DNA from: a virus | Lineage: Duplodnaviria; Caudoviricetes | DNA length: 64,000 bases | IMG/VR virus record: IMGVR_UViG_3300012956_000019 | Coordinates: 7,375 to 71,374 of that record | Strand: one strand, 5' to 3' | In this document: positions 1 to 64,000 of the stretch, one piece after another | Position numbering within the stretch: the stretch's first letter is position 1 | Layout of the letters: every line of letters starts with the position of its first letter | Notes under the pieces: model-generated | Seen by the model: only the letters and a program-made list of their open reading frames with translations | Told to the model about the DNA's origin: nothing | Databases searched by the model: none | Program-made: the position numbers and the translations under genes

Positions 1-413
1 AAATAATCATCTGACATGTCTTTTTGTGGATCATCTGTGAATCCTTGCTTTTCTTGATATGCCCAAAGTTTATTTTTCAATTCATTCAAATCACCATTCT
101 CCCAATTGTAAACATATTCCCTAAGTGATATATCACCCAAATCTTCATTCAAGTTGAACTGTGTTGTTTGATATAAATCTGTGGTATTAAATATTGTGCT
201 GGATGTACCATGTAAAAATCCAATAAGTGACATTGTCACCAATTTGAATGTGACTTTAGCATCCTTCAATTCCTGTATGTTGCTTATAACATCCTGACCT
301 GACTCTATTCCAAATTTTTCCATGAACTCTTCCATCATCTGATATTCAGTTCCCAAAACAATAGATGTTGTTTTGTTTGTTCTGATAATTCCTATGTTAT
401 AACCTGCTTTCAT
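1..413 (-). CDS. hypothetical protein (3' end runs off window)
   Basis: Manually translated ORF MKAGYNIGIIRTNKTTSIVLG... from ATG at 413 with AAGGA upstream; open to position 1. Confidence 0.7.
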   Translation of the reverse strand, partial: MKAGYNIGIIRTNKTTSIVLGTEYQMMEEFMEKFGIESGQDVISNIQELKDAKVTFKLVTMSLIGFLHGTSSTIFNTTDLYQTTQFNLNEDLGDISLREYVYNWENGDLNELKNKLWAYQEKQGFTDDPQKDMSDDY

Positions 414-449
414 TGTGTTGTCCTTTATAAATTGTTGTTGTTGAATTTC

Positions 450-698
450 TTATGAATATCTTACATTCAAGTGATTAAAAACATCTGTTGCGTGTTCTGA
501 TGTACATCTTGAATTTAATTTTGCCTTAACTTCTTTTGGATATTTGTTCATGATTTTTTTCATTTCAGCTTCAAACTCATCTTTTGAACTGACTTCTAAT
601 AAATTGTCTGAAAGATTATATGAAAAAACTGATTCCAAAGACAGCTTGTATATATCCATTCCAAACTTAACTTTGATCATTTCATTTTCTTTTTTCAT
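450..698 (-). CDS. hypothetical protein
   Basis: ORF track 450..704; ATG at 698 follows AAAGGAACTT RBS. Confidence 0.6.
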   Translation of the reverse strand: MKKENEMIKVKFGMDIYKLSLESVFSYNLSDNLLEVSSKDEFEAEMKKIMNKYPKEVKAKLNSRCTSEHATDVFNHLNVRYS

Positions 699-831
699 TT
701 CCAAGTTCCTTTCAAAATTTCTAAATTTGTTTCAATCACCATAAGAAACTTAATAATTGTTTTGACAATATCCTAATGTTTTGTCACAATAATAAAAATT
801 TTTTTTGATTATAATATATGATAATGGCAAT
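695..831 (-). promoter_or_regulatory. copy A of dispersed promoter/RBS cassette
   Basis: Shares CAATCACCATAA..AACTTAA..ACAATATCCTAATGTTT and ATAATGGCAAT blocks with 5256-5404 and, inverted, 58510-58691. Confidence 0.55.
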
Positions 832-878
832 TTAATTTATATCAACAGAAAAGAGATTATTTTTTACCCTAAATAAAA

Positions 879-903
879 AGCAGGTGACATTACACCACCT
901 GCT
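879..903 (-). terminator. rho-independent terminator
   Basis: AGCAGGTG/CACCTGCT stem with T-tract on minus strand, just after the DUF932 gene. Confidence 0.7.
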
Positions 904-921
904 CTCACAACAACACAACAA

Positions 922-2007
922 CTAAAATTCAAGCATCTTTGCTAATCTGGTCTGATATTGACTTCTTGTTCTATAATTAACATAATGAGAAATGTAATAT
1001 GTAAATACATTATATAGTGCCCACATGTCCTTGATTTTATCCTTTGATTCACCATTCTCTTTGTTTAAGTATGCCAATGCCCTTGTTCCAAATGTACTTG
1101 ATACAGCTGTATCAAATTCTGTTGTCTGGTTGAACTCTGTGGCACTTAACAACTTTACTCTTTCATTGATAGTTGGAATCAACTTGTAAGTGTCTTCCAT
1201 CTGTTCCTTTAATCTATCAACTGAAAATCCAGATGTGTGTTTTGCATAAAATCTTGCGAACACTTTTCCAAATACCATTCCATTTGAACAAATACCTCTG
1301 ATAGCACCCCACATTGCTTTTATTCCTTCACTTCCATCATAGCTGTTGTTAATAAACAAACTCATTGCTATGTCAGATGCTCCATCATTAAATATCAATT
1401 CAGGAAATGTTAATTGTATTCTCATTTTTCTGTCATTTATAAATGAGTGAGTTGGATCAACAATCCATTTTGAATCCAATTTATCAAGATGTTCTAACAG
1501 TGGCATTACAATATCTTCATTCCTAACCAAGTTGTAACTGTTCTTAACAACATTTATAATCTTACCATCTTTGTTAACAATAGCTTTATGACCTGGTGCT
1601 GGCACCATTTCAGTTCCATTTGTAAAATATACTTTATCAGCGTGAACTGGTGTCATAAACTGTTGAAGTTGACTAACATTACCTACAACATGAACACCAT
1701 TTTTAACAGTGTCTTCTGTAAAGGTGTGTGTCTGATTTCTTTCAACTTCACTTAATCTCTTTTTAATATCAATCATTTTATTTTCCAACTTTTTGTACAT
1801 TCTTCTTTTGGTTGAATCACTTGCTGTAATCAATTTGAATTTTTCTTCATTGGTTAGGAATTGACATCCAGCTTTCCACAAATTCATTTCCTTTAATGCT
1901 TGATTCAATACCGCACCTGAAGATGTTGGTGACACTGTTGATATATCTGGTGTTGTTTCTAATATTGGTTCAATTATTGATACTGTTGTGTTGTTTGAAG
2001 TTCTCAT
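922..2007 (-). CDS. DUF932 domain protein with N-terminal extension
   Basis: C-terminal YNLVRNEDI...NNSYDGSEG...GAIRGICSNGMV matches the DUF932 signature. Confidence 0.75.
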   Translation of the reverse strand: MRTSNNTTVSIIEPILETTPDISTVSPTSSGAVLNQALKEMNLWKAGCQFLTNEEKFKLITASDSTKRRMYKKLENKMIDIKKRLSEVERNQTHTFTEDTVKNGVHVVGNVSQLQQFMTPVHADKVYFTNGTEMVPAPGHKAIVNKDGKIINVVKNSYNLVRNEDIVMPLLEHLDKLDSKWIVDPTHSFINDRKMRIQLTFPELIFNDGASDIAMSLFINNSYDGSEGIKAMWGAIRGICSNGMVFGKVFARFYAKHTSGFSVDRLKEQMEDTYKLIPTINERVKLLSATEFNQTTEFDTAVSSTFGTRALAYLNKENGESKDKIKDMWALYNVFTYYISHYVNYRTRSQYQTRLAKMLEF

Positions 2008-2060
2008 TGTAAAGTTCCTTTATATTAAATTTATGTTTGTTTGTTTTGTTGTTTGTTTTG

Positions 2061-2116: not shown

Positions 2117-2710
2117 TTATTTTACCAATTCTTTGAAAATGATTCCTAACATTCTGAAATGTTCAGCATCTGGAATCATTTCATTCAGTTCATCAACTTT
2201 AGAACTTAATTTTGTGTTCGATTCATTAAGTTGTTGAATTTTCAATCTTAAATTAGCACCTGATGCTTCAAGTTGTCCGATCTTGTTTGTCCATTCCTTT
2301 TCTTTATTAAACAATTCAATGCTTTTGACAACCAATCCTGTTTCCTTTTCATCTACATCTTTCATTCTGGTTTCATATTCCAACTTCAAATAATAATCTG
2401 CCTTAAAATTAGCATAAATGTTTAATAAATCAAGTTGAGCATCTACACCCATGGCTTTGCCCACTGAAAAAATAACCATCCTGAATTCAGCCATCTTCTT
2501 GTCAGAGTGTAATTGTAAAAAACATTTCTCAATGTCTTCACCTCTTGATTTACCATAAATGTCTTGTAAGCCACACATTATCTCTGTTCCAACCTTATTA
2601 GCAGTGGTTGTTCTATTAACAGCATCAGCCCAACTATGTAGTTGTTCAGGTGATGTAATAATTGCAAAATTGATTTGCATTGTGTCAAGTAATAATTTTG
2701 AAGTTGTCAT
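2117..2710 (-). CDS. hypothetical protein with C-terminal coiled coil
   Basis: 197 aa ORF; heptad-like C-terminus; ATGA overlap with upstream gene. Confidence 0.7.
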   Translation of the reverse strand: MTTSKLLLDTMQINFAIITSPEQLHSWADAVNRTTTANKVGTEIMCGLQDIYGKSRGEDIEKCFLQLHSDKKMAEFRMVIFSVGKAMGVDAQLDLLNIYANFKADYYLKLEYETRMKDVDEKETGLVVKSIELFNKEKEWTNKIGQLEASGANLRLKIQQLNESNTKLSSKVDELNEMIPDAEHFRMLGIIFKELVK

Positions 2711-5255: not shown

Positions 5256-5404
5256 GTCTCAATCACCATAAGAAACTTAAAAAAGTTTTTAACAATATCC
5301 TAATGTTTTTTGAAAATATTTTTAATTTTTTTTGGATTGGATAGCCAATAATGGCAATATCATTTAGAATTGTGGAAAAGGGTACAAAAAAATACCCTAA
5401 ATTA
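5256..5404 (-). promoter_or_regulatory. copy B of dispersed hairpin-promoter cassette
   Basis: About 150 bp similar to reverse complement of 58510-58660; includes AGGGTA-CAAAAAAA-TACCCT hairpin right after the primase stop. Confidence 0.6.
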
Positions 5405-6433
5405 TTTTGTTATATTATTATATAGATTGGCAACTTTATATATTTGTTTTGAATTGCTATATATAGAACACCATTTTTTATATGTGATGTTGTTTACATC
5501 TTGACCCTTTGGCAACAAAGTTCTATATAGTTCAACACCAGTTCCCAACATCTTGTCTTTTGCTTTCACAAATCCTTTAATGCCAGCTGGGTCATTATCT
5601 AAACACAGAAACACTTTATCAAATACCATCAATTGTTCTATCTGCTCATCAGATATATCAGCACCAAAACAACAAACAGCAGGAACACCCCAAAACCATA
5701 AATTCATTGCATCAACTATTCCTTCAGCTACAATACACCAATTGAATCCTTTTCTCAATACCCTATGTATGTTGAACAAATATTCTATCTTATTAACACC
5801 AAATGGCCTGTAATACTTTCTGTCTGTTTTAGCCTCTGTAATCAACCTGCCTTCACTCCATATGTATTTTCCTTCAACATTATGGCATGGTATTATTATT
5901 CTGTTCAAATATTCTTTTCCATATGAACTATCTGATTTGGTTGTATAGCCAATATTAAACATTCCAATCCATTCAGTCATGTTTCTCTTCACAAGATAGT
6001 TATAATGATTGCTACAGTGTATATCTGTGGCAGATATATGTTCAAATCCTTTTGGGATATGAAATGTTTTTTCTTTATGATTTTTTAGGCTTGTTATTTC
6101 TTTTATTCTTTGTTTGCTTTCTTTCCATAATGAATCAGGCAACATCCCAACAGTTACACTTTCCAAATTCATATCCCAATTCATATGGGTGCACAATTCA
6201 CTCCAAGTGCCACTTCCACACCCTGAATAACAGTTATAACCACCATGATCTTTGTGTATAAAAAATGATGGTGTATGATCTTCGTGCCCAAAAGGCAATA
6301 TACACTTCATTTTAAGCCATTTACCAGACACTATATATTCAATGCCTTTTTTAGCAATAAAACTTTCTACATCAACTGGTGCAAATGAATTACTATTGAA
6401 ATCTGATTCAACAAAATCTTTTAATGATGGCAT
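5402..6433 (-). CDS. DNA primase (DnaG-like, Zn-binding + TOPRIM)
   Basis: KCILPFGHEDHTPSF...CYSGC zinc motif; EGIVDAM and CLDNDPAG TOPRIM motifs. Confidence 0.9.
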   Translation of the reverse strand: MPSLKDFVESDFNSNSFAPVDVESFIAKKGIEYIVSGKWLKMKCILPFGHEDHTPSFFIHKDHGGYNCYSGCGSGTWSELCTHMNWDMNLESVTVGMLPDSLWKESKQRIKEITSLKNHKEKTFHIPKGFEHISATDIHCSNHYNYLVKRNMTEWIGMFNIGYTTKSDSSYGKEYLNRIIIPCHNVEGKYIWSEGRLITEAKTDRKYYRPFGVNKIEYLFNIHRVLRKGFNWCIVAEGIVDAMNLWFWGVPAVCCFGADISDEQIEQLMVFDKVFLCLDNDPAGIKGFVKAKDKMLGTGVELYRTLLPKGQDVNNITYKKWCSIYSNSKQIYKVANLYNNITK

Positions 6434-7062
6434 ATATTTCTAAAACAATTTGCTTTTTTGGCTATTTCTTTATCAAACATTGGATTATTTAACTTCATTC
6501 TTTCAGACATTTGAATTTTTTGTTCTGGTGTCATTCCTCTATTTTTATTGGCTTCTGCTATTTTCTTTTTGTGTTCTGGTGAATGTACATATTTTTTACC
6601 TTTATTCCAAGGCACCATTCCTTTGTTAGCCTTGCTAATTTTATTTTTTGTAGTTGTTGATATAATTCTATTTTTATTTGCTTCTGCTAATTTTCTTTTT
6701 GTCTCATCAGAATGTGTCTTTCCAAAAAAAGGATTTTTGTCACCACTCATTCTTTCACACAATTTTTCTCTCATCTTAATTATTCCTTCAGTTCCACCAT
6801 CAGATATATTATAACCATTTGGTGATTTGGAATTATAAGAAATGATAAAATATTTTTCCAACTCATTTGCATCATTTTGGTTATAACAAATTGCCAGTGT
6901 TACCTTCTGAAAATTTTTCTTTCCATATTTAATTATTGCACTTTCAATAGCATATCCACTACCAAAATAATTTTTATATGCACCATTTGATCGAGTGGTT
7001 TGGCCAATATAAATTTTTTTATTGATGAGATTTTTCACCATATAAATTTTATATTTTATCAT
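6421..7062 (-). CDS. GIY-YIG homing endonuclease with NUMOD3-type repeats
   Basis: KIYMVKNLINKKIYIGQT; GDKNPFFGKTHSDETKRKL and KKYVHSPEHKKKI repeats. Confidence 0.9.
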   Translation of the reverse strand: MIKYKIYMVKNLINKKIYIGQTTRSNGAYKNYFGSGYAIESAIIKYGKKNFQKVTLAICYNQNDANELEKYFIISYNSKSPNGYNISDGGTEGIIKMREKLCERMSGDKNPFFGKTHSDETKRKLAEANKNRIISTTTKNKISKANKGMVPWNKGKKYVHSPEHKKKIAEANKNRGMTPEQKIQMSERMKLNNPMFDKEIAKKANCFRNICHH

Positions 7063-8928: not shown

Positions 8929-9502
8929 CTATATATTGATAAATTTCAAAAGATGATTCTATTGTCCTATACAGCTCATCACCATATATTTTACCAATAT
9001 CACCCAGATCATTGCTTTCAACTTCTATACACATTACAATGCTTTTATCCATAACACCATTGAATAAGCTATCTACAAAGGAACTAAATACACCCATCAT
9101 TCTATCATACATTTTTCCATACGATCTTATGTTGGTTATGGAAATCAACTCACAACTGTTCATCTGTCCAATCAGTTCCATATTCATTTGACCAAACTTA
9201 TCAATCATTGTATTCACAACATATACAAAATCCAAATATCTACAAACTGTTTTTGATTTCAATAATTCCCTAACCAAAATGGAAACTATTTTATTGGCTT
9301 CTGTTATGTTATTTGTTACAATTGCTACTGAACTACCACTTTGTATCATTCCCTTCAATTGTTCTACAGCCAGTGTTTCAGTTTCTGTTATTGGTGAAAA
9401 CCAATATTTTTCAGGCAAGCCAATATTGTACAAAGTCATTACCTGTCTAAGTTTGTTGACTCCATACTTTTTTTTCAGTTTCTCCATCAAATTTATTTCC
9501 AT
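8903..9502 (-). CDS. putative DnaC/IstB-like helicase loader with degenerate P-loop
   Basis: GLPEKY N-terminus and alpha/beta pattern typical of DnaC-like proteins; adjacent to helicase; no GxxGxGKT. Confidence 0.45.
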   Translation of the reverse strand: MEINLMEKLKKKYGVNKLRQVMTLYNIGLPEKYWFSPITETETLAVEQLKGMIQSGSSVAIVTNNITEANKIVSILVRELLKSKTVCRYLDFVYVVNTMIDKFGQMNMELIGQMNSCELISITNIRSYGKMYDRMMGVFSSFVDSLFNGVMDKSIVMCIEVESNDLGDIGKIYGDELYRTIESSFEIYQYIVGVQNETE

Positions 9503-10720: not shown

Positions 10721-12508
10721 TTACTTTCTAAAATCAATCAAGTTCCTAATGTCTTTTATTGTCAACCTGTTTTCCATCCTATTGTTATCAAGAATATTTG
10801 TACTCATTTTTCTTTTCTCCCAAACAGTTTCAAATACTTGTTCTTCAATTGTTCTCTCAGCAATAATGTTTACAATGTTGATTACTTTATGCTTTGTGCC
10901 CAATCTATCAATCCTGCCCACTCTTTGTTCCATTTTAGCTGGATTAAAAAGCATGTCAAAGTTTACTACATAATTGGCTGATGTTATATTAACACCTTCA
11001 GTTAAAATATCTGATGTGACTAATATTTTACAACTTTCATCAGCATTAAACTGATTTATCACTTTAACTCTATCATTAACACCACAGAACAAAGGTGAAT
11101 TTTGATTTCCATGAATACAAATATTTTTATATTTATATTTGTCAAGTGTTTCTTTTAACAATTCCACCATTCCTATGAAATGAGTGAAAACAACGATCTT
11201 GCTTTTATCATCAAGTGAAGCAAGAAAATCAATCAATTGATCTGTCTTTGTGCTGATATTTTCTGGATGACCAACTAACTTAGCTGACAAACAACATTGC
11301 CTTAAATATGTAATCATAGGCAAAATTTCAGCATATTTTATCTTTTCTGCCTTTTCCATATCTGAAATTTGTGTTACAACCTGATTACTTATTTCATCAT
11401 AAAACTTTCTTTGTATATGTGAAAGCTCAACCCAATAATTATTTTCAATCTTATCTGGTAATTCATCCAACACATCTTCTTTCATCCTGCGTATTAAATA
11501 TGGTGCCATTCTTTCTTTAATAGTTTGTTCATCTTTATATCCAACAGCATTACCAAACCAATCTGTTTCAATAAATTTTTCCTTAAAATGCCAATACAAT
11601 CCATCACCACCAAATATGTTGAAATCAATAGCTTGAAATATACTCCACAAATCCATCATACTATTTTCAATTGCTGTAGCACTCATTCCAATAGAATACT
11701 TTGCAAACCTTGAAATCATTTTAGTGTGTTTACTTCTTTTTGTTTGATGATTTTTGATATATTGAATTTCATCCATAATCAGAGCATAAACATATCCTTT
11801 TTGCAAAATATGTTCATCTATCATGTCAATATCCCAATTCAATAAATCATAATTTATAATCAAATAATCATATTTATAAGCCTGTTTGTATAATTTTTTT
11901 CTTTTATTTTTATCACCATCAATAACAACACATGTTTTAGTTGTCCATTTTGAAATTTCTTGTTCCCAATTTCTTTTAAGTGTTGATGGACAAATTATAA
12001 TACAAAAATTTATTGATTTATCACTCATGTGTTTTTCAACAGCTGTTAAACTTTGAACTGACTTGCCCAAACCAACCATGTCGCACAACATTGAGTCTTT
12101 TGCTTTATAAAGAAAATAAGCACCAACAACTTGAAAAGGATATAATGTTGGATTGCTGTTCATTTTTTCTCTTAAATTGCTTATAATGTATCCATCTCTT
12201 AAATTGGATAAATTATTTTTAATATTTATTTGTTCTCTTTTCCATGTTAAATAATTAAAGAAGTGTTGTTTGACTGATGGATGTGCTTTTATATTAGAAT
12301 TAAATATATATTTATTATTTTTAATGTTTTTAATTAACAGTGCTAAATCCCTAATTGGCACTGTGTAAACTTTCTTAATTTTATCAAAGTGTCTAACTGG
12401 CATTTTTTTTACTTCAGATAATGTGTGTGAAAAAACACTTCCATTTATATTAACAAAATTTATATAAAATTGTTCTTCATCAAGTTCACTAAAAATTATT
12501 TTTGACAT
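10721..12508 (-). CDS. SNF2/SWI2-family SF2 helicase with HARP-like N-terminus
   Basis: DMVGLGKS, MDEIQYIKN, SATAIEN, QRVGRIDRLG motifs. Confidence 0.9.
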   Translation of the reverse strand: MSKIIFSELDEEQFYINFVNINGSVFSHTLSEVKKMPVRHFDKIKKVYTVPIRDLALLIKNIKNNKYIFNSNIKAHPSVKQHFFNYLTWKREQINIKNNLSNLRDGYIISNLREKMNSNPTLYPFQVVGAYFLYKAKDSMLCDMVGLGKSVQSLTAVEKHMSDKSINFCIIICPSTLKRNWEQEISKWTTKTCVVIDGDKNKRKKLYKQAYKYDYLIINYDLLNWDIDMIDEHILQKGYVYALIMDEIQYIKNHQTKRSKHTKMISRFAKYSIGMSATAIENSMMDLWSIFQAIDFNIFGGDGLYWHFKEKFIETDWFGNAVGYKDEQTIKERMAPYLIRRMKEDVLDELPDKIENNYWVELSHIQRKFYDEISNQVVTQISDMEKAEKIKYAEILPMITYLRQCCLSAKLVGHPENISTKTDQLIDFLASLDDKSKIVVFTHFIGMVELLKETLDKYKYKNICIHGNQNSPLFCGVNDRVKVINQFNADESCKILVTSDILTEGVNITSANYVVNFDMLFNPAKMEQRVGRIDRLGTKHKVINIVNIIAERTIEEQVFETVWEKRKMSTNILDNNRMENRLTIKDIRNLIDFRK

Positions 12509-26453: not shown

Positions 26454-26473
26454 ATGTACATAACCTTTTAAGG

Positions 26474-26887: not shown

Positions 26888-27013
26888 AATTTTTTCCTTT
26901 ACCTGTTCCTGTTTTTACCTGTTTTTATTATAAGTGAACTGTTGCTTCAAATGTTACAGGCATGCATCATCCACAACAGTCCACCAATTGGCACCAGCAG
27001 GCACCATTCTTAA

Positions 27014-36243: not shown

Positions 36244-36252
36244 TTTGAAATC

Positions 36253-37102: not shown

Positions 37103-37130
37103 AAGCCAGACAATGTTAGTTGCCTGGCTT
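37103..37130 (-). terminator. terminator after major capsid gene
   Basis: AAGCCAGGCAA/TTGTCTGGCTT stem on minus strand, AT-rich tail. Confidence 0.7.
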
Positions 37131-37150
37131 ATAATAAAAATCAACAACAA

Positions 37151-38146: not shown

Positions 38147-38238
38147 TTTGTCTCCAATAATTTAATGAATTTATTTTTGTTTAATTTACTTTTCAAAATA
38201 CCTAAGAACAATGAACTATGAACTATGAACTATGGCAA

Positions 38239-38817: not shown

Positions 38818-38855
38818 TGTTTTATGAATTTATTTAATTAATGCTAACTTCTTTT

Positions 38856-39761: not shown

Positions 39762-39855
39762 TGTTTTTCCTTAAAATATTTTTTATTTTCTGTTGTGATA
39801 AATTTAATTGTTTAATACACTTGATAACAAATACATTTTCACCATTCCATACTTA

Positions 39856-40068
39856 TTAGGACTGTTGTGTTTTATCTATTATTACAACATCAGGCATTTC
39901 ATATCCAATGCTGTTTAAGAATTTCACCAAATCCTTTGTTGTCTTGTCATCATCTTCCATCATCTCCATACAATTGGTATGAAACCAAATGTCTGAATTA
40001 TTATTGCTTGGGTCAGTTCCTTCAGCAACTTTATTTTTCTTTTTTTTCTTTTCAAATTCTTGAGACAT
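39856..40068 (-). CDS. small protein, candidate MuF-toxin immunity protein
   Basis: 70 aa; start overlaps the MuF stop codon. Confidence 0.5.
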   Translation of the reverse strand: MSQEFEKKKKKNKVAEGTDPSNNNSDIWFHTNCMEMMEDDDKTTKDLVKFLNSIGYEMPDVVIIDKTQQS

Positions 40069-41939
40069 TATTTCATACCTATATAATTTTTCAATATTTT
40101 AATACTATTTCCATTTTTATCTAATAACAATTCACCTCTCCACCATCCTCTATTTAACATGAAATCTTTACCACTTATTTTCACACCATTAATTGTTTTG
40201 TTATATGTAGCAAAATCCCAGCTGTGTTTGAAATTAGAAGTGTCAACAATAACACCAGCTTTTTGTTCTATGTATCCACTAAATGCTCTTGCATAATTTC
40301 TTAATGTTATGTCTGATTCAAAATCAAATCCATATTTTGCCCAAGCATATAGCCCTACATCACCATTGGCATGAACTGTTATTTTATAAACATTATATTT
40401 CTCATAAAATTGAATTTGATTTCTAAATAATTCTTTACCAATTTGCCTATTTTGAAAAGCACCTTCAAGAAAAAATGAATCATGATCAACAATAAGTTTC
40501 TCTGATATTTGTTTTCCTTCAGTAACAATTGACCTTCTTTGAAAATTTCTATGAAATGAACCTATTTCATCACCAGATTTATATGATTTTTCGTGTAATA
40601 TTTGTTTGCTTTCACCATATCTTGTTTCTGTTGTGTACCACTGCAAATTATTGTAATCTTTTTGAGCTTTTAAGTGACCAGACACTCTGAAATTATCTCT
40701 GCCAAGTGGCATTATTTCAACATCTGTCTTAAATTCTGAACCTGTATTGAATGCTTTTTGAAAATCTTCATAAAATATTTTTTGTTCTTGTTTAATACCT
40801 AAAATTGATTTGATGTCATTCTCAAATTCCAATGCTTCTTTTTCAGCTGATCCATTCTCCATAAAATAATCTTTCATGGATGTCTGATTGGCCAATGCTA
40901 TGTTTTCTGCCGCAAGCAATTTGGCTTCATCAAAAGTTTCTGTTGCTAATAATGGCACCCATTGGCATCTACAATTGGCGTGTTGTGGTATTACACCACT
41001 TGCTTGTTCCAATGTATAAATCATCCCTTCAAGCCCAGCGCAAATTGGACACAATCTCTCATCTGGTGAAGTGCTAAATTGTACACGATCTACAACACCA
41101 GATTGCTTAAATCCATCTAATCTGCCTGCATTATAAGCACCATTTATTTCTGTTCTTGCTACAGTATTTGCCCAATGTTTTGGTGACATCTGATATGAAT
41201 AACCTTGTCTGATCACAGTTCCATCTGGTGATATTCTTGGTGGAACTTTAACATCAATTGGTTTATTCCATAATGCCAAAATATTTTTTCTAACTTCAGG
41301 AATGCTATCACCATTTTTAATAGCTTCCAACAAAGTGTATTTTATATTGCTTGAAATCTCTTTACTAACTTGTTCAGAAAGTTTCAATATGTAGTTGTTA
41401 AAAAATTTCTCAACATTCTTATCTCTGAGTGCAAAATCTATTCCAACATCAAAAATACCAAATACAGTGTTTCCACCCATGTTGTAAGAATCAAATACAC
41501 TGTGTGAAATTGCTTCATTGAATGGGTCAGGATTGATGAATGATATACTGTTGATGGTCTTGTCCACACCTGATTTATTTAGCCAATCTCTCATCTCCAC
41601 TGAAAATGTAAATTCCTTAAATCTGGTGATGCCAACAGTTGTATATTTCACCCTTGGTTCAAGTGGAATGTTTTCAAGTTGAACAATACTATCTTTTATG
41701 AACTTTTGGGTGTAAATTTTCTCCAATTGATTTAGCTTTGACAGAACTTCTTTTTGAGCATTGTCAAAAGCTATAATCAATTGCAATTCAAGTTTCTCTT
41801 CAGCCAATATAATCCAATCATAATACCTCTTTTGTATGTCTGATTTTTTCTTGGCCAATCTTTCAACAATAGAAAGTGTTTCAAGAAATTTTCCAACATC
41901 CTGAACCTTCATTGGTGGTGTTAAACTTAATTTATTCAT
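40068..41939 (-). CDS. MuF/SPP1 gp7-like head morphogenesis protein with GNAT-like C-terminal extension
   Basis: TVARTEINGAYN...DERLCPIC...PQHANCRC MuF core; C-terminal FQNRQIGKELF...HANGDVGLYAWAKYGF. Confidence 0.85.
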   Translation of the reverse strand: MNKLSLTPPMKVQDVGKFLETLSIVERLAKKKSDIQKRYYDWIILAEEKLELQLIIAFDNAQKEVLSKLNQLEKIYTQKFIKDSIVQLENIPLEPRVKYTTVGITRFKEFTFSVEMRDWLNKSGVDKTINSISFINPDPFNEAISHSVFDSYNMGGNTVFGIFDVGIDFALRDKNVEKFFNNYILKLSEQVSKEISSNIKYTLLEAIKNGDSIPEVRKNILALWNKPIDVKVPPRISPDGTVIRQGYSYQMSPKHWANTVARTEINGAYNAGRLDGFKQSGVVDRVQFSTSPDERLCPICAGLEGMIYTLEQASGVIPQHANCRCQWVPLLATETFDEAKLLAAENIALANQTSMKDYFMENGSAEKEALEFENDIKSILGIKQEQKIFYEDFQKAFNTGSEFKTDVEIMPLGRDNFRVSGHLKAQKDYNNLQWYTTETRYGESKQILHEKSYKSGDEIGSFHRNFQRRSIVTEGKQISEKLIVDHDSFFLEGAFQNRQIGKELFRNQIQFYEKYNVYKITVHANGDVGLYAWAKYGFDFESDITLRNYARAFSGYIEQKAGVIVDTSNFKHSWDFATYNKTINGVKISGKDFMLNRGWWRGELLLDKNGNSIKILKNYIGMK

Positions 41940-43497
41940 TTATTTTTGTAACCTTATCAGCTGGAAATGTATATGTCTTGCTCAAAAATTGTTCCCTGTC
42001 ATTAATTATCTGCTCAACAATAGCCAATCTTTGACTTGGCTCCATTGTTTCCCAGCCAACAGGTGTCTGATTGTCTTCTGACAAATACTTAGTCAACAAC
42101 GATCTGCTAATCAAATTAACATTTGGAACATTGCCTGCTTGTGGTGTTTTATCAACAGCATTTGGATCACCAGGCACTGATTGTCCATTTGGTCCAATTC
42201 CAAATGGTGCAACATTATTCTGTAAATAAGGAACATCACCCCAAGGAACAGGCATCAAGCCCAATGCTGTTGTTCTTATCTCATTTATTGTAATAACACC
42301 TTTATCCAAATACATTTGATGCCATTCAGCTTGATCCTTTTTATCAATAATGTCCAAATCAAAATCTAAATACACATCAGTCATTCCTAATGCTGTTTTA
42401 TCAAATATAATATGCTTGTTGTATTTATCTGTAAATGATACCATGTGTGGTTTTACAGCATCAATCTTAAATTGTTTGACTTGTTCAGTGACTGAACCTT
42501 TTGCTGCACTTCCAATTTCAACACCTAAAACAACTGGTTGCATTTTATAAACAGCCATGATCTTTTGTAACAACATTTTACTGTATTCTTGAAATTGCAT
42601 TTCTTCATTGCTCATTCCAACTTTCTGAAATGATATTTTACCATTTTCAGTTCCTATGACAATTGGTCTATGTGGCTGACCTCTCAATTCAGTGTCCCAC
42701 CATGTTCTAAATCTTGTCAATGCTGTCTGACCTTGTCCTGTTCCAAGCCCTTCCATCAATACAGCAAATCTTGGTGTAGCATTATTGTAAAAGAAATCAA
42801 GATTAAATTGGCTGGAATATAATTCAGCTGTTACAGTTTGGATAAGTGATTCAAGTGGTGATAATCCATACAGCCTATCTGATTGTGGATTAAGTTTATA
42901 ATACAATAGTTGATTTTTTTTCCATGATGTTATCTTTTTCATGTGTCTATCAACTTGAATATAGGCTTCATCTTCTTTCAACAATCCTTTTTCATCAGCA
43001 TTTATCTTAACTGTATTGCCAGGTACAGCATAAATTTCAACTAATTTCTTGCCTTTATTCAAGTCAGCACCTCTGACTATTTCCATTGACCCAGCATCAT
43101 ATACCAAAATGTCTCTGGCAATTTTTTTCCTTATCTCTGTCAAAGTTTCATAATTTGAATTTGGTTTTTCAAGAAGTTCTGAAACCAAATCCATGTTCTT
43201 TTTAGTTTCATCAGAAAGTTTTGCCTCACTCTGATCTGATCTTAATCTCAGTGGTTTAACTAATGGTGCCACCTCTGTTATTCTTTCAATAGTTTTATCA
43301 ACTATTGCTCTCACCCATGTATTACTGATATACATCATTTTCATTTGTGGAAATGACAAGCCCTTGACAGCAAGTTTCTCTGCATATGCTACATTCCCTG
43401 ATCCACCAACTCTGCCCAATGACAATTCATCACTATCAATGGAACTTTCTTTTGTGTTGGCTTTGTAGAAAAAAGATTTTGAAAAATTTATCATCAC
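41932..43497 (-). CDS. portal protein (HK97/lambda-type)
   Basis: YGLSPLESL...FFYNNATPRFAV...GVITINEIR. Confidence 0.9.
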   Translation of the reverse strand: MMINFSKSFFYKANTKESSIDSDELSLGRVGGSGNVAYAEKLAVKGLSFPQMKMMYISNTWVRAIVDKTIERITEVAPLVKPLRLRSDQSEAKLSDETKKNMDLVSELLEKPNSNYETLTEIRKKIARDILVYDAGSMEIVRGADLNKGKKLVEIYAVPGNTVKINADEKGLLKEDEAYIQVDRHMKKITSWKKNQLLYYKLNPQSDRLYGLSPLESLIQTVTAELYSSQFNLDFFYNNATPRFAVLMEGLGTGQGQTALTRFRTWWDTELRGQPHRPIVIGTENGKISFQKVGMSNEEMQFQEYSKMLLQKIMAVYKMQPVVLGVEIGSAAKGSVTEQVKQFKIDAVKPHMVSFTDKYNKHIIFDKTALGMTDVYLDFDLDIIDKKDQAEWHQMYLDKGVITINEIRTTALGLMPVPWGDVPYLQNNVAPFGIGPNGQSVPGDPNAVDKTPQAGNVPNVNLISRSLLTKYLSEDNQTPVGWETMEPSQRLAIVEQIINDREQFLSKTYTFPADKVTKINE

Positions 43498-45214: not shown

Positions 45215-46956
45215 CCAAAAAATATTCCTACATCAAGTGAAAATCTATCATAGGCATTTTTAGTTGAACCCACAATTGCATCAATAACATCCTTGCTACC
45301 AACTTCAATTCCCTCAAGCAAAAATCTGTCCCAACTTTCTACTGGGTGATCCACTTTACCATTATCACCAATGGTTAGTTCCTTTGATTCCCTGTGAGCT
45401 ATTGGATGTGGATAACATCTAACAAGCTGTTGATACATCAATTCTTTCCAAGTGTCATATGATTCATTGCTTTTGTCCACAGAAAATGCTTCAGTTGGTA
45501 TGCCCTCTTGATTCATTATCTGTATGCTGTCTCTGCTTTGCCATCCATCATAGGTTACAATGCCAATATTAAATCCAAACTGATTTTTTAATCTCAATAT
45601 GAACTTTCTTACATCTGAAAATTGCACCTCTGTACCTGATTTAGCAACTAATTGAATGGCCAAATCAATTACAACACCTTTTCTTGTTATGTTAAGTTCA
45701 GGATCATCAGCATTGAATTCAACAATAATACCTTCTTTGTACAAATCCTTTTTTAGCCTATCATCTAACTTTGGAAACATAGAATCAATATGAGTCAGAG
45801 CAAATCCAGCACAGTCATTCTTTTTGTCTTTCTTACCAGTGCCTAAATCCACATGTACAGCATACATTCTGCCTTCAGTTCCTTTGAAAAAAGATTTGAA
45901 CTGAAGTGATTGAAGAAAAGCACTGTCAATACTTAACAAATCACCCACTATTGGATTTTCATAAGCTGGTGAAAACATGTATGACAGCATATATTTCTTA
46001 CTAACATATCCACCAACTTCAGCATCACCTTCACACTCATAAGTCATCTTGGCTTTTTCATAATTCCTTTTATATTGTTGTGCCAACTTTTCTCTTGTGA
46101 CCATTAAGTTCACTTCATGTGTCGCTTTCTTACTGCTAAACACTCTTTCATTATCCAATTCCTTTTTGTAAAGAACATCCATTGGATCATTGTGATAATA
46201 CTTATATGAAATAACACATGTTTTACCAACACCTGAAAATCTTGATGTCACTGTATCCCTAACAGCATCCAATAATTCAAATGCCTTTTCAAAAGGAAAT
46301 GAACCAAACTCATCTATTGTTACAAAGAACAAGTTCAATCCTTCACCTGTATTAGTTTCACTGTTTAGAGAATGTGCTGTAATGGAAAATGGAAACTTGA
46401 CTTCAGATGTCTGTAAGTCATATCCATCTCTCATATCTACACCCTTTTCAGCAAACCAGTTTTTACCAGTTCTTGGATTGATACATTTCTTTAACAATGA
46501 TTTGAACTTTTTGAAATACACATTTATTGCTTGTCTGGCATTAATGGACATATTAGCCACATCAATAGCATCATCATCACCAATTGAACATCCATATTCT
46601 GTTCTTAGGAACTCATGTGGATTTTTAAGACACATTAATTTGTATATCAAATACACCTGCATCTTGCTGATTGTTCGATCTTTACCACTTCCCTTGCCCC
46701 AAAAAGCATGTCCTTCATCATAATCTGTGTTAAATTCTGTGGCTAATTCACCAAGCATAGCCCTGCTGAATTCATCTTGAACTGGAAACAACCCTTCACC
46801 CAGCCAATCTAAACAAAAAGTTTGTATGTCCACTGGTTTCTCTGACCAAACATCACTATCTATTTGGCTAACAGATGATGGTGTAACAACAGCTGAATAT
46901 AGTTCATCCATGAACACTGTTTTAACTGGTTGAGCTTTTGTAAGTGTCCTTGCCAT
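45211..46956 (-). CDS. terL: terminase large subunit
   Basis: Walker A GKGSGKD, Walker B VTIDE, nuclease HVDLG...TYDGWQS...SKDVIDA. Confidence 0.92.
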   Translation of the reverse strand: MARTLTKAQPVKTVFMDELYSAVVTPSSVSQIDSDVWSEKPVDIQTFCLDWLGEGLFPVQDEFSRAMLGELATEFNTDYDEGHAFWGKGSGKDRTISKMQVYLIYKLMCLKNPHEFLRTEYGCSIGDDDAIDVANMSINARQAINVYFKKFKSLLKKCINPRTGKNWFAEKGVDMRDGYDLQTSEVKFPFSITAHSLNSETNTGEGLNLFFVTIDEFGSFPFEKAFELLDAVRDTVTSRFSGVGKTCVISYKYYHNDPMDVLYKKELDNERVFSSKKATHEVNLMVTREKLAQQYKRNYEKAKMTYECEGDAEVGGYVSKKYMLSYMFSPAYENPIVGDLLSIDSAFLQSLQFKSFFKGTEGRMYAVHVDLGTGKKDKKNDCAGFALTHIDSMFPKLDDRLKKDLYKEGIIVEFNADDPELNITRKGVVIDLAIQLVAKSGTEVQFSDVRKFILRLKNQFGFNIGIVTYDGWQSRDSIQIMNQEGIPTEAFSVDKSNESYDTWKELMYQQLVRCYPHPIAHRESKELTIGDNGKVDHPVESWDRFLLEGIEVGSKDVIDAIVGSTKNAYDRFSLDVGIFFG

Positions 46957-48599: not shown

Positions 48600-48989
48600 T
48601 TAATATTCCTTGATTTGTATAATGATATATCCACCCAGTGTTTGTGGTGCACTGAATTGTAATTTCCAATTTTGTGAAAAGCCAATAAAATAAGCTGGCT
48701 GAAGTAACACTGTCTGGTTGGCTTTCACACCTGAAACTTTCAATGTATCATCCATAAATCTAACATTGTTAAATATTTTAGTGTTTCGATCTGTGTACAT
48801 CAAAAAACTCACATCACATGAATCAAATCCAGCAGGAAAGTCCAACACTGAAGGCTTCATATTTTCATTGACAACTATTTCATTGGTCACTGTTGAGCCT
48901 GGTGGATAATATGTTCTGATGTACTGTTGTGAAAAGGTTACAACAGTCATTATTAAAAACAATCCAGCAATTAAAATTAGTTTTTTCAT
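48600..48989 (-). CDS. exported beta-rich protein
   Basis: MKKLILIAGLFLIMTVVTFSQ signal peptide; AAAGGA RBS. Confidence 0.65.
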   Translation of the reverse strand: MKKLILIAGLFLIMTVVTFSQQYIRTYYPPGSTVTNEIVVNENMKPSVLDFPAGFDSCDVSFLMYTDRNTKIFNNVRFMDDTLKVSGVKANQTVLLQPAYFIGFSQNWKLQFSAPQTLGGYIIIQIKEY

Positions 48990-52889: not shown

Positions 52890-53460
52890 AATCTGCCAAC
52901 AGGACAACTGATGCTCTGTGCTGGCATTTGGTATTTGACTGTTTGATATTATTCCCTTATATTGTCCAGTTGTCCAGCTGGTGGAAACTGAAATGTTGTT
53001 GTGAAAATGTATGTGTGTCAGAAGAGCACATTGCCCAACCCCTGGTGCCACCATTGGCCACAAAATGCCACCACCCCCACCAATTGGCCAGCAATTCCCA
53101 CTTTTGCACAGTCTAATGTGACAGATGTTGTCCAGATGTTGTGGCATGGTTACACTTGATACACTTGACACAGATGTTGTCCGATCTTTGCAATAAATAA
53201 ATTCCTTGCTCATATAGGTAAAAACACACTGAACTGTTGATAATCCAACTGTTATGGCAAGCGTATGGTGTATGTCATCTGGGTATTGTGGTGGTGAAAT
53301 GGCGTGGCAACCTGGCAATGTGTCAATGGCACACACACAATGCAACCACCATGGCATTACTTCAACACCAACTCCATCACCACTTTCTTTCCTTACAACA
53401 GGCATTCCCAACACAGTACAGCCACCATTCCAAGTGACTATTTCATTAAATTCTTTCATC
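52890..53460 (-). ncRNA. candidate structured non-coding RNA / long hairpin element
   Basis: About 45% GC island with nested inverted repeats (53008-53020/53327-53339, 53027-53035/53314-53322, 53046-53055/53298-53309, 53092-53100/53280-53288); strand assumed from flanking genes. Confidence 0.4.
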
Positions 53461-54352: not shown

Positions 54353-55165
54353 TTATATTGATTCAATTTCTGCCTTAAATAATTCAGTGGGCATATAATT
54401 ATCAGACAAATCATTTAATACATCTATTGATTGTTTAGGTGTTAAAAACATGGCATTCTTTTTTATCTTAGTTAAACAGTCAAGTGTAACAACATCACCA
54501 ACTGGTCTTTTCTTCAGCCAATAATAACAGGCATCTTTGTATTGTACTGCTATACAATTATAAAACTGTTCTGGCTTGGTATCATCTACATCTTTCTTTT
54601 CCAAGTGTACAACAGTGTAACTTCTTATAATGTAATTTTTATCTGATTTAATTAAAGTGTCCAACATCTGTTTAGCTTCATATGTTTCTTCAGGTGTTCT
54701 GAATATCAGTGCTTTCGATCTTTGTATTGTAAGATTTATGTCATATGTGAATGTTAAGCCATCTGTCAGTTGTTTCAACCAAAACTTATTTTCATCCTTG
54801 TTTGTTATCTCTATGATATCACCATTGTAATGGACAGCTGGCTTATTATCTAAGTTTTGTTTCACCAACTGTGCTATGGTCTCATTGTTATTAGCTATGT
54901 CTGTGAGCTTATCAATGATGAGCCAAATGTTATATTCACTTGCTTTCTCCCATCTGTTGTGTAGTGTCACTTCATCTTTCCTAACATCTGCTAATTGCTT
55001 TGCTGTATTTATTCTTTTGGTCAGGATATTTTTCAATTCACCTGAATATGATTCTATAACTTCCAACACCTCAACAAGCCTCTGATCAGCTAATTCATCA
55101 AGTGTTATCTGTTTAATAGCTTTTGTTATGTTTTCTATATGGTGTATTTGTTTCTCTACAGTCAT
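54353..55165 (-). CDS. hypothetical protein with two similar C-terminal modules
   Basis: FWLK...ALIFRTPEE and YWLK...AMFLTPKQ repeats; similar AHIFTPTE in 55345..55617. Confidence 0.7.
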   Translation of the reverse strand: MTVEKQIHHIENITKAIKQITLDELADQRLVEVLEVIESYSGELKNILTKRINTAKQLADVRKDEVTLHNRWEKASEYNIWLIIDKLTDIANNNETIAQLVKQNLDNKPAVHYNGDIIEITNKDENKFWLKQLTDGLTFTYDINLTIQRSKALIFRTPEETYEAKQMLDTLIKSDKNYIIRSYTVVHLEKKDVDDTKPEQFYNCIAVQYKDACYYWLKKRPVGDVVTLDCLTKIKKNAMFLTPKQSIDVLNDLSDNYMPTELFKAEIESI

Positions 55166-55347: not shown

Positions 55348-55617
55348 TCCTATTTTGATCTTATCTATAACAACATCAAGTGTATTAACATTATCAACAA
55401 TATTTATTATTTCAACCGATCTAACAATTGAATCTTGATTCAATATGATATTAGCTGTGTTCATAGCTTTTAATGTTTCAGTTGGTGTAAATATATGTGC
55501 TTTGTTTTTATATTCACTAAATGTTATTTCATTTCCATCACTTGATATTCCATCAAAATACTTAGGAATGATGCTACCAATAAATGACACTGATAATATT
55601 TTACTCTTTGTGGCCAT
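55345..55617 (-). CDS. hypothetical protein
   Basis: Start MATKSK after AAGGATAAC RBS; stop overlaps the palindromic element. Confidence 0.6.
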   Translation of the reverse strand: MATKSKILSVSFIGSIIPKYFDGISSDGNEITFSEYKNKAHIFTPTETLKAMNTANIILNQDSIVRSVEIINIVDNVNTLDVVIDKIKIG

Positions 55618-55621: not shown

Positions 55622-55825
55622 TTATCCTTGTTTGGTCTTGTCTTCTTTAACACCTAATAATGTATTCAACCGATCTTCATCAGTTGTACTAAGTTTCTTT
55701 GTTTGTATCATCCTGCTAACTATCTTGATGAATTCCTTTTCATTCTTGACTCTTTTTTTAACCAGTTGCATAATTTCTACATATTTATTGTATTTTGCTA
55801 CTGTTAATTGTGAATTTACTTCCAT
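55622..55825 (-). CDS. hypothetical protein
   Basis: 67 aa ORF. Confidence 0.55.
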   Translation of the reverse strand: MEVNSQLTVAKYNKYVEIMQLVKKRVKNEKEFIKIVSRMIQTKKLSTTDEDRLNTLLGVKEDKTKQG

Positions 55826-59178: not shown

Positions 59179-59442
59179 TTATTTAACAGGCATTTCTGCT
59201 ATCTCTTTCACCTTATCTGTATTCATCTTAATCCATTGTCCATCCTTTTCTCTGTAAAATTCAATTACAGTATGCTCTATGAACAACGATCTTACCACTG
59301 AATACATATTCCAACCCTTCAGTGAATCAAATTCTTTCCTGTTATCTGATACAATATTCTTAACCAATCCTGCTTCATTATTCATCAATACAATTGGAAC
59401 ACCATCCAAAACAATTTTCCATTTCCTTATCTTTTCAATCAT
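59179..59442 (-). CDS. hypothetical protein
   Basis: Start MIEKIRKW with ATGA overlap. Confidence 0.55.
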   Translation of the reverse strand: MIEKIRKWKIVLDGVPIVLMNNEAGLVKNIVSDNRKEFDSLKGWNMYSVVRSLFIEHTVIEFYREKDGQWIKMNTDKVKEIAEMPVK

Positions 59443-62614: not shown

Positions 62615-62997
62615 TCATCTTCACAGTTGATTATCAAATTCATAATTGGAATGTTGTGTGTTATTGATTTTTCAACAAGTTCCTTGATAATATCTCCATG
62701 GCAACTTTTTGGCTTACAATAACAAACTAAGTTTATTTCATGGTTGATAGCCATCTTTTTAATAAATTCTAATTCACCAATAACATCACCATCAAATTCA
62801 TTGATTTTACCCTTAATCCATTTTCTGTATTCTGTGATTGCCTTTTCTCTTGAATCAACTTGAACTTGTGCTTTGCTTTTATTCAATGGTAAATGTGTGA
62901 AAGGATTGCCAAGGACACTGCCTCTGCCAATATAAATATCACTTGGTTCATTTACATGTTGATGTTTATTCACTACATTGATTTTAATTTGTTTCAT
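62611..62997 (-). CDS. DUF4326 protein
   Basis: IYIGRGSVLGNPF...LVCYCKPKSCHGD signature. Confidence 0.85.
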   Translation of the reverse strand: MKQIKINVVNKHQHVNEPSDIYIGRGSVLGNPFTHLPLNKSKAQVQVDSREKAITEYRKWIKGKINEFDGDVIGELEFIKKMAINHEINLVCYCKPKSCHGDIIKELVEKSITHNIPIMNLIINCEDE

Positions 62998-63467
62998 TTT
63001 TCTTTATCTATTGTTAGTTGTAAAAATCTTATCACCCTTGATTCTATTCCTGGTGAAACACTTTCTCTGTTCCCTGCTACATTTAGAACTTTAATATTGT
63101 TATCATTCAGCCATTTTATAAAATTAGCAGGTGTTGGATTAACAATATGTGGCACTCTATTTTGTGAACATACATTTTTTGTTAATTTACTTCCAACAGA
63201 TGTTTGTTCAGCAAATATAACAGTTCCATCTGAAATTTTTATATTTTCAATTGTTCTTTCTCTGTAATCATTACCTGATTTGCAAGTTGTTTCTACAAGT
63301 CCAAACATATCTTTTAATAATTCTGGATCACTTCCATTTTCAGTTCTAAATCTTTTGGGAGCAATTCCACCAGTTTTTATTCCTATCATATAAGCAAATT
63401 TTAATCCTGCTACATCAGCACCTGTCTGACCACCAGAAATTATTTTTTCAATTTTTCTGTATCTCAT
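62994..63467 (-). CDS. SLOG-fold protein (putative molybdenum carrier / cpYpsA-like)
   Basis: KIISGGQTGADVAGL...RTIENIKISDGT...LNVAGNRES. Confidence 0.85.
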   Translation of the reverse strand: MRYRKIEKIISGGQTGADVAGLKFAYMIGIKTGGIAPKRFRTENGSDPELLKDMFGLVETTCKSGNDYRERTIENIKISDGTVIFAEQTSVGSKLTKNVCSQNRVPHIVNPTPANFIKWLNDNNIKVLNVAGNRESVSPGIESRVIRFLQLTIDKEK

Positions 63468-63521
63468 TTTTTCTTTCTGTAAATTTCATTTTGTTTAATA
63501 TACATAGATGTGTAAATAAAA

Positions 63522-63545
63522 TGAGCCAGTTGATGTACTGGCTCA
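63522..63545 (-). terminator. rho-independent terminator
   Basis: TGAGCCAGT/ACTGGCTCA 9-bp stem then TTTTATTT on minus strand. Confidence 0.75.
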
Positions 63546-63549
63546 ATTG

Positions 63550-63840
63550 TTATTTTTTCTTTGCTGGCGCTTTTGATGTGACTTTTTTCTTTTCATCCTC
63601 TGGTTCATCTTCTGGTTCAAGTTCATCCTGTTCAATAGGTGGTGGAATTACAGCAACCATCTGACTACCAACAGGCAGGATATACTGTGTTCCATCATCA
63701 GTTTCTAAGGTAACATGAGCATCAGGTGGATTCAAATTTTCATATTCAATCACCTTGCCCTCATATTCCATTCCACCAAAAATTACTTTCACTTGATTGC
63801 CTTCTTTCAAGTGTGATTTTAGTCTTTGTTTGAAAGCCAT
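63550..63840 (-). CDS. hypothetical protein, Sm/SH3-like barrel with acidic tail
   Basis: LKEGNQVKVIFGGMEYEGKVI; GGAG RBS. Confidence 0.65.
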   Translation of the reverse strand: MAFKQRLKSHLKEGNQVKVIFGGMEYEGKVIEYENLNPPDAHVTLETDDGTQYILPVGSQMVAVIPPPIEQDELEPEDEPEDEKKKVTSKAPAKKK

Positions 63841-63886
63841 TTCTTATATCTCCATTGTTTGTTAATGATAATGTTAATTTAGCAAA

Positions 63887-64000
63887 AAATTATGCATGTT
63901 TTATATCCTTGTTAAAATTACATGTTTTATAAATACTGTCTTTTTATCAAGAAATTATGCATGTTTTATATCCTTGTTAAAATTACATGTTTTATAAATA
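63887..64000. repeat. 65-bp-period tandem repeat (runs off window)
   Basis: 63887-63935 identical to 63952-64000; shares AATACTGTCTTTTT..CAAGAAATTATGCATGTTT core with the 55.2/56.4 kb elements. Confidence 0.85.

Follow-up and report, generated by a model that had tools for sequence, protein, structure and literature searches.

Within a stretch of 64,000 nucleotides of phage DNA, here called the window (bases 7375-71374 of the 71,374-bp viral contig IMGVR_UViG_3300012956_000019 of IMG/VR, which is classed as linear and about 81% complete), the dinucleotide CG has almost disappeared, and the copies that are left are concentrated in one hexamer, AGATCG, which occurs in a single orientation on the coding strand (for nearly all genes of the window the minus strand). 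The depletion is independent of coding, it is spread in varying degree over a lineage of related phages, and AGATCG is polar and over-represented in two divergent members of this lineage. In our estimate a somewhat better than even chance can be given to an explanation by two separate forces, selection that purges CG from the DNA and selection that retains AGATCG as a polar, Chi-like signal. We infer under this explanation that selection rather than mutation removes CG, that an agent exists which reads CG, and that the hexamer functions like Chi.

The window contains 53 CG, as compared to about 1,438 expected from base composition (11,941 C and 7,706 G), corresponding to an observed-to-expected ratio (O/E) of 0.037; the original prediction, which had estimated some 50-55 CG by eye and about 1,300 expected, was close to the exact count. 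For the whole contig the ratio is also 0.037, with 60 CG, of which 18 belong to a coding-strand AGATCG. The window has a surplus of TG and CA (O/E 1.64 and 1.51, respectively). The CG ratio hardly varies between codon positions 1-2 (0.040), 2-3 (0.037) and 3-1 (0.039) and amounts to 0.05 in intergenic DNA, and shuffling of synonymous codons, which keeps proteins and codon usage, yields 605 CG in coding DNA as compared to 54 observed; this null ignores the dinucleotides at codon junctions and is conservative for CG-containing words and liberal for TG-rich ones. Moreover, the choice of a codon depends on the first base of the codon that follows. GAC accounts for 226 of 827 Asp codons (27%) before a codon beginning with a base other than G and for none of 469 before one beginning with G, AAC for 285 of 1,084 Asn codons (26%) before non-G and for 1 of 393 before G, and TAC for 197 of 669 Tyr codons (29%) before non-G and for none of 273 before G. 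As the depletion is the same whatever the codon position and also between genes, and as codon choice depends on the next base, the pressure is on the DNA word CG, and codon or amino-acid bias, the explanation that would have spoken against the original prediction, is ruled out as cause. In addition, every NCGN context is depleted, the four palindromic tetramers being hit no harder than the others and GCGC being relatively spared, and the target therefore looks like CG itself and not like a set of longer sites. Clustering of the CGs outside the motif, as would be left by recently acquired DNA, is not significant except for one 15.5-kb gap. Nine of the 42 CGs outside AGATCG arise where the His codon CAC is followed by G (CACG, in five cases CACGC; positions 491, 1641, 6283, 7674, 17697, 19244, 40592, 40979 and 53303), and this junction is kept at 15%, as compared to about 0% for other codons of the type NNC followed by G.

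How far does the depletion extend beyond this phage? Relatives were found through the capsid protein, whose family is plentiful in metagenomes of marine and sediment origin, and stem from these habitats and from a sulfidic cave. In CG O/E they form a graded series, from 1.26 in L006 (guanine-plus-cytosine (GC) content 63%) through 0.53 in G002, 0.52 in L022, 0.39 in L005, 0.29 in the relative called phage B below, 0.26 in L021, 0.15 in L017 and L023, and 0.11 in L015 and G003 to 0.018 in L003, and not a single CG is present in the 5.1, 9.3 and 10.9 kb of L002, L033 and L034, respectively. L033 is 93.8% identical to positions 31,069-40,365 of the window, with 555 substitutions, including 110 C/T and 145 A/G differences with conserved neighbours. 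None of these differences creates or destroys a CG, as compared to about 43 expected from the background (about 22 C/T and about 21 A/G). The CG-free block of the window described below, L033 and L034 together contain thousands of TG and CA, each of which is one transition away from CG, and a balance set by mutation alone would demand a rate of CG loss exceeding that of CG gain more than about 1,000-fold. The hypermutability of 5-methylcytosine (5mC) is roughly ten-fold, and a loss-to-gain ratio of such size under mutation alone appears implausible to us. We are therefore moderately confident that selection against a CG-reading activity keeps CG out of the DNA, the agent itself being postulated.

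CG is not the only word that has been purged. Compared to the synonymous shuffle, CTAG (0 versus 69), TTTAAA (1 versus 73), AAGCTT (0 versus 24), ATTAAT (10 versus 74), AGATCT (0 versus 13) and, to a lesser degree, TGCA (125 versus 228) are depleted. Words resembling the Shine-Dalgarno sequence have nearly gone from the inside of genes on both strands (AGGAG 1 versus 57, GGAGG 0 versus 33), and words of the reverse-complement type are low as well (CTCC 2 versus 48, CTCCA 0 versus 34). GATC is found 73 times in the contig, where about 190 copies are expected, and is missing from the closest relatives. RGATCY (AGATCT, AGATCC, GGATCT and GGATCC) is represented by one copy in total, suggesting a BstYI-like pressure. 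Relatives differ in the words that they have purged, CTAG being absent here, in G002 and in G003 and normal in phage B (73 copies). Since deamination cannot touch these other words, selection at the level of words must be efficient in this lineage, and the loss of CG fits the same process. The pattern resembles restriction-site avoidance in phages in that words are removed through synonymous and codon-junction choices irrespective of protein sequence, in that CTAG, TTTAAA, AAGCTT, ATTAAT and RGATCY, and GATC in the relatives, have been purged along with CG, and in that the set differs from relative to relative. It differs from restriction-site avoidance in its target, a bare dinucleotide whose frequency is lowered about 25-fold in each of the 16 flanking contexts, and to zero in relatives. 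We know of no restriction enzyme with bare-CG specificity and of no characterised prokaryotic restriction or defence system that reads CG almost without context.

The depletion is not uniform along the contig. No CG is found between 25,072 and 40,592, confirming the CG-free stretch that had been placed at about 25.1-40.5 kb, and a block of about 15.4 kb lacks both CG and GATC (Table 1). The CG gap and the GATC gap are each significant (p < 0.0002) and their borders coincide. L033, which contains neither CG nor GATC, matches within this block with about 94% nucleotide identity. Coincidence of the two gaps and the match to L033 thus make the phage look like a recombinant that seems to have received one module from a lineage without CG and GATC, the remainder of its genome tolerating GATC (73 copies) and a few CGs.

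The CGs that survive are far from randomly placed. As had been noted from the letters alone, CGs are enriched in CGATC/GATCG: 14 of the 53 in the window lie in this context, where a first-order Markov model predicts 1.6 (binomial p = 5e-10), and the sites originally listed are all correct by exact count, except that 55397 should read 55417. On the plus strand 13 of these CGs are in CGATC, all of them in CGATCT, and one is in GATCG (6989-6993). Read on the coding strand of the whole contig, AGATCG is found 18 times and CGATCT never, and the copies are distributed over three reading frames and one intergenic site. Among the hexamers with central GATC on this strand, AGATCG (18) is followed by AGATCA (17), TGATCA (13), GGATCA (11), TGATCC (10), TGATCT (2), AGATCC (1) and CGATCA (1), and no copy is found of CGATCT, TGATCG, GGATCG, CGATCG, AGATCT and GGATCC. 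Of the 4,096 hexamers none is more enriched over the synonymous shuffle than AGATCG, with 17 copies versus 2.9 in a null that holds 11 times too many CGs. The reverse complement occurs in coding sequence 0 times versus 2.9 expected, and the orientation bias of 17 to 0 has p = 1.5e-5 against a codon-aware null of 1:1. Codon choice demonstrates the exemption in each of the three frames. ATC is used for only 6 of the 552 Ile codons that precede G (ATT 356, ATA 190), and all six lie in xAG ATC G; TCG is found in 6 of 23 AGA-Ser pairs as compared to 8 of 1,322 Ser codons overall; and CGN is found in 5 of 19 cases of Arg following A GAT as compared to 12 of 633 Arg codons overall. L034, which is free of CG, carries the synonymous AGGTCA or GATAGA in place of AGATCG at three orthologous positions. 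The density amounts to one AGATCG per 4 kb in the contig, rising to about one per 3 kb when the CG-free block is left out.

Several trivial origins of the hexamer can be discarded. Its three frames encode different dipeptides (KI-G/V/E, RS and DR), which eliminates a protein motif; it is not forced by conflict with another avoided word, as the synonymous AGATCA, GATAGA and ATT followed by G exist and are used; and it is not an Illumina adapter (AGATCGGAAGAGC) or an assembly artefact, as the flanks are not adapter, the open reading frames (ORFs) remain open and two assemblies of phage B agree over the 3,000 bases compared. No extended consensus of more than 0.6 bit surrounds AGATCG in this phage, a preference for G at position +1 being found only in phage B, and local hairpins at the AGATCG sites are the same as in random windows. 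The copies within 2272-2284 and 53176-53188 share 13 identical bases (GTTGTCCGATCTT, plus strand) in unrelated genes and different frames. The copies at 55417-55422 and 55671-55676 have identical 3' flanks (AGATCGGTTGAA) and lie in two copies of a repeated palindromic element (55188-56553); these two are therefore not independent occurrences.

The same hexamer stands out in a second phage. Phage B is a composite of L036, L020 and L035 that extends over 40.5 kb, and only half of it is sampled; its JGI assembly (L020) is identical to its Logan assembly (L036) over the 3,000 bases of overlap compared. Its capsid protein is 72% identical to that of the phage described here and its GC content is 37.6%. 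On 40.5 kb, AGATCG occurs 28 times and CGATCT not at all, with the same spectrum of GATC flanks, and AGATCG again ranks first in an unbiased scan of hexamers (23 versus 3.7), reaching a density of one per 1.4 kb. AGATCR is three-fold over-represented (33 versus 11), and AGATC outnumbers GATCT by 56 to 4. Only about 70% of the CGs have been lost in phage B and CTAG is normal, so AGATCG is no mere remnant of a purge but is positively enriched there, independently of other avoidances. The enrichment is not seen in G002 (9 AGATCG to 0 in reverse orientation in 88 kb, about as expected from composition), G003 (0 to 2) and L039 (4 to 0 in 16 kb).

How could a phage lose nearly every CG and still keep this dinucleotide in one particular hexamer? 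In the explanation that we prefer, strong and continuing purifying selection on the phage lineage would remove CG, an extreme form of word avoidance akin to the avoidance of restriction sites, and the postulated agent could be a CG-reading nuclease or defence system of the host, or else an attack directed at DNA with methylated CG. AGATCG, read 5' to 3' on the coding strand, would be positively selected as an orientation-dependent cis signal, and CGs would for this reason be concentrated in it. That AGATCG is such a selected polar signal we regard as quite probable. Enrichment in one orientation, independence of the reading frame, dispersed distribution and variation among relatives fit a signal that is read by a machine tracking along DNA, and a machine of this kind would be the most likely reader. 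The preferred candidate function would be that of a Chi-like site taming a host exonuclease of the RecBCD/AddAB type, similar to the situation in lambdoid phages rich in Chi. Among the functions that can be proposed from the distribution of the hexamer such an anti-exonuclease or recombination signal ranks first, as a tentative assignment. Lambdoid phages without a recombination module of their own contain many Chi sites of their host in the active orientation, for example 20 active versus 3 inactive sites in E. coli phage LLS, about one per 1.9 kb, and 32 versus 0 in Pseudomonas phage MD8 (PMC12315714). AGATCG shares with these sites that it is a short oligomer in one orientation, independent of frame, found about once per 1.5-4 kb and variable between related phages. 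It differs in its length of six bases, in not being G-rich, in having no match among known Chi sequences and in surviving a purge of its own CG. It could further be imagined that uncultured bacteria of marine, sediment and sulfidic habitats possess a CG-reading defence which the phage family answered by deleting CG, and that AGATCG serves this host as a signal of the Chi type, or as a polar signal equivalent to it, a scenario that in so specific a form appears rather doubtful to us.

A number of points weigh against the preferred explanation. Both the CG-reading enzyme and the host Chi are predictions, and most known Chi sites, unlike AGATCG, are G-rich. AGATCG is absent from the CG-free close relatives and from 15.4 kb of this genome and is therefore dispensable; dispensability and density together are more readily expected of an adaptive signal that depends on the host than of a core function of the phage. 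A recombination module or a RecBCD inhibitor may yet be encoded by the phage: RecT, Erf and Gam-like proteins had no match among the about 40 ORFs scanned, in a genome with many small ORFs without family and with about 15 kb of early genes missing. GCGC (6) and CACG (9) are somewhat over-represented among the other survivors, hinting that context-dependent shielding may add to the pattern, and there may be further exempt contexts. Finally, a regime of very fast 5mC deamination is conceivable, provided that a host enzyme methylates the DNA and that repair does not operate inside the virion. The excess of TG and CA is what deamination predicts, albeit selection acting via single transitions predicts the same excess, and the search for methyltransferases covers about 81% of the genome, the missing 19% or so being able to encode one.

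The original prediction had attributed the depletion to a CG-specific methylase of the M.SssI type or to a CG-targeting defence and the surviving CGs to protection of sites overlapping GATC, for example by GATC methylation. Of this proposal, a force that acts on the CG dinucleotide itself and throughout the lineage is upheld, and a defence fits better than methylation followed by deamination. We consider it improbable that a CG-specific 5mC methyltransferase of host or phage (M.SssI or M.MpeI type) caused CG to decay to TG and CA while GATC methylation shielded the overlapping CGs. Such an enzyme would account for the excess of TG and CA as well as for the uniform depletion in coding and non-coding DNA, and under-representation of CpG has been linked to M.MpeI in Mycoplasma penetrans (PMC11282364). 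The likeness to the CpG loss connected with M.SssI of Spiroplasma and M.MpeI extends to the AT-rich genome; the differences are that no such methyltransferase was found in the contig, that the loss is much greater than we would expect of methylation-driven decay, CG being wholly absent over 10-15 kb, and that non-CG words are purged too. No match to the C5, Dam-type and N4/N6 methyltransferase families PF00145, PF02086 and PF01555 was obtained in the 71-kb contig, about 19% of the genome being missing from it, and a 245-residue Rossmann-fold methyltransferase encoded outside the window (L001:5123-5860) matches only generic small methyltransferase families. Moreover, zero CG in the 15.4-kb block, L033 and L034 would under mutation alone require the loss-to-gain ratio of more than about 1,000, and deamination cannot explain that non-CG palindromes are equally purged. 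Protection by GATC methylation is contradicted by the sites themselves: it predicts survival in both orientations and in all NGATCG, whereas AGATCG alone survives and only in one orientation; it could restore the neutral frequency at most, whereas AGATCG is over-represented here and in phage B; and GATC itself is depleted and absent from the closest relatives. A word that is enriched among survivors can thus reflect positive selection on the word and not necessarily chemical protection.

Other readers of AGATCG can be envisaged. The hexamer could be the preferred initiation site of the DnaG-type primase of the phage, consisting of a five-base primer template and a cryptic 3' G; if replication is co-directional with transcription, the coding strand would be the template of the lagging strand and the CG would be kept as priming needs it. 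This we hold to be unlikely. The phage does encode a primase with zinc ribbon and Toprim domain and a DnaB helicase, its genes are on one strand with monotonic cumulative GC skew, and AGATCG is polar, frame-independent and dispersed at the spacing given above. Yet a stretch of 15.4 kb and close CG-free relatives without AGATCG are hard to square with an essential priming site, and G002 and G003 encode homologous primases (39% and 36% identity) without being enriched in AGATCG. Known primase sites are 5'-GTC-based pentamers for T7 and 5'-CTG for E. coli DnaG, and the hexamer is longer than the primase recognition sites known to us. Improbable to about the same degree as CG methylation is evasion of a Type III or Type ISP-like enzyme that would recognize the asymmetric AGATC(G/R) and cut only between inverse sites, leaving one orientation to be kept; hemimethylation of these sites by the Mod subunit of the host might also hide the adjacent CG. 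In coding sequence 34 AGATC are opposed by a single GATCT (null 47 and 35), and the ratio in phage B is similarly one-sided. The depletion concerns GATCT in particular, AATCT, CATCT and TATCT being near expectation, and a general avoidance of TCT- or CT-rich words was dismissed on this ground. A precedent is phage T7 with 36 EcoP15I sites in one orientation (PMC3874151), which shares with the phage described here an asymmetric word of 5-6 bp that is frequent one way and almost never found the other way, and genes on one strand. Evasion, however, predicts only the loss of one orientation, whereas the retained orientation is enriched, AGATCG 5- to 6-fold over the null in both phages and AGATCR in phage B. 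In addition, most of the GATCT deficit arises because RGATCY is avoided and CG is purged, leaving TGATCT (1 versus 12) as the unexplained remainder. Least likely of all appears a strand-specific nick site of a phage-encoded nickase that would serve replication or packaging. Single-strand interruptions are present in the DNA of T5-like phages, all AGATCG copies are on one strand at kilobase spacing, and candidate nucleases are encoded (a DUF559 protein of Vsr fold and a GIY-YIG protein). Against it stand the lack of the hexamer in close relatives and in 15 kb of the present genome, as well as the NUMOD3 motifs of the GIY-YIG protein, which make this protein look like a homing endonuclease.

Avoidance of words, decay of CpG under CG methylases, phages rich in Chi and Type III sites in a single orientation have all been known before. 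New are the graded CG series within one phage family that reaches down to complete absence, the mosaic block as a document of exchange between lineages purged to different degrees, and a CG-containing polar hexamer that in two divergent phages appears to be positively selected against the purge. If selection removes CG 25-fold, and wholly in sister phages, something in the host would read CG nearly without flanking context. Provided that the more specific scenario of a CG-reading defence and of AGATCG as Chi-type signal of the host is true, a phage genome would reveal both a defence specificity for which no enzyme is known and a recombination signal belonging to an uncultured bacterium. AGATCG is a short, testable sequence that the phage apparently pays to keep, and knowing its reader, be it an exonuclease, a primase, a nickase or a translocating restriction enzyme, would help to identify the host and would also expose a cis signal of an uncultured phage-host pair.

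Table 1. AGATCG sites and other features of the window (window positions).
Feature	Position	Strand	Remarks
AGATCG	2278..2283	-	AAG ATC G frame
AGATCG	9122..9127	-	AGA TCG frame
AGATCG	11194..11199	-	AAG ATC G frame, SNF2 helicase gene
AGATCG	25072..25077	-	left edge of the block without CG and GATC
AGATCG	41086..41091	-	GAT CGT frame, MuF-like gene; synonymous GAT AGA in L034
AGATCG	42100..42105	-	AGA TCG frame, portal gene; synonymous AGG TCA in L034
AGATCG	46676..46681	-	GAT CGA frame, terminase-like gene; synonymous GAT AGA in L034
AGATCG	48787..48792	-	GAT CGA frame
AGATCG	53182..53187	-	GAT CGG frame
AGATCG	54716..54721	-	AGA TCG frame
AGATCG	55417..55422	-	AGA TCG frame, inside repeated element
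AGATCG	55671..55676	-	intergenic, second copy of repeated element
AGATCG	59287..59292	-	AGA TCG frame
Sole CG in GATC context other than AGATCG (CGATCA on coding strand)	6989..6993	+	GIY-YIG endonuclease gene
DnaG-type primase (zinc ribbon and Toprim)	5402..6433	-	candidate reader of a polar initiation motif in one alternative
Block without CG and GATC, about 15.4 kb	25,073-40,484		tail, neck, glycosyltransferase cluster, capsid, protease; delimited also as 25078..40483

The contig, with a GC content of 30.7%, encodes an HK97-fold capsid protein, a portal, a MuF-like protein, a terminase-like protein and long tail proteins, with a cluster of glycosyltransferases placed between capsid and tail genes. 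Replication and nuclease genes comprise those for the SNF2 helicase, the DnaB helicase, the DnaG-type primase, the GIY-YIG/NUMOD3 endonuclease and a 5'-3' exonuclease, and just beyond the window follow genes for a sigma-like protein, a SprT-like protein, a HAD nucleotidase/kinase and the DUF559 (Vsr-fold) protein. Megablast against phages gave no match to this phage, the nearest matches of its portal and DnaB proteins in cultured phages have at most 26% identity, and no Rfam family was found in the window. The relative G002 is a complete genome of 87,945 bp with direct terminal repeats, the same gene order and all genes on one strand, which indicates a genome size of about 88 kb for the family and that about 15 kb of early genes are missing from the contig at the right-hand side of the window.

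Judged from gene content, namely the bacterial-type replication genes, lysozymes in relatives and the ribosome-binding motif AAGGA, the host is a bacterium. The capsid relatives P0029, P0083 and L005 were deposited in metagenome-assembled genomes (MAGs) labelled Hodarchaeales, Lokiarchaeota and Chloroherpeton thalassium, labels that contradict each other and clash with the gene content of a bacterial phage (DnaB, DnaG-type primase, sigma-like factor, lysozymes); the GC content of the 'Chloroherpeton' MAG is 32%. The viral contigs of these relatives were probably misbinned into the MAGs by composition. CG O/E in the MAG that contains L005 is 0.7-1.0, as compared to 0.39 for the viral contig L005, which speaks weakly for selection, as the binning may be wrong.

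Some further observations concern individual genes. Inteins (Pfam Intein_splicing) are present in terminase-like and MuF-like genes of relatives (L017:1386-4538 and 6739-8271; L020:2400-3578), and none was shown in the copies of this phage. The homing-endonuclease-like GIY-YIG/NUMOD3 gene (window 6421-7062) lies between the genes for the primase and DnaB, is without equivalent in G002, G003 and phage B, and holds the only CG in GATC context that is not part of AGATCG. The DUF559 gene is the last on the contig (contig bases 155-754, outside the window) and comes after the genes for the HAD nucleotidase/kinase and a protein with FAD motif; its product, of Vsr-like endonuclease fold, could be a nickase or a mismatch endonuclease. 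Gene starts are preceded by AAGGA or TAAGGA, not GGAGG, 7-10 nucleotides upstream of the start codon.

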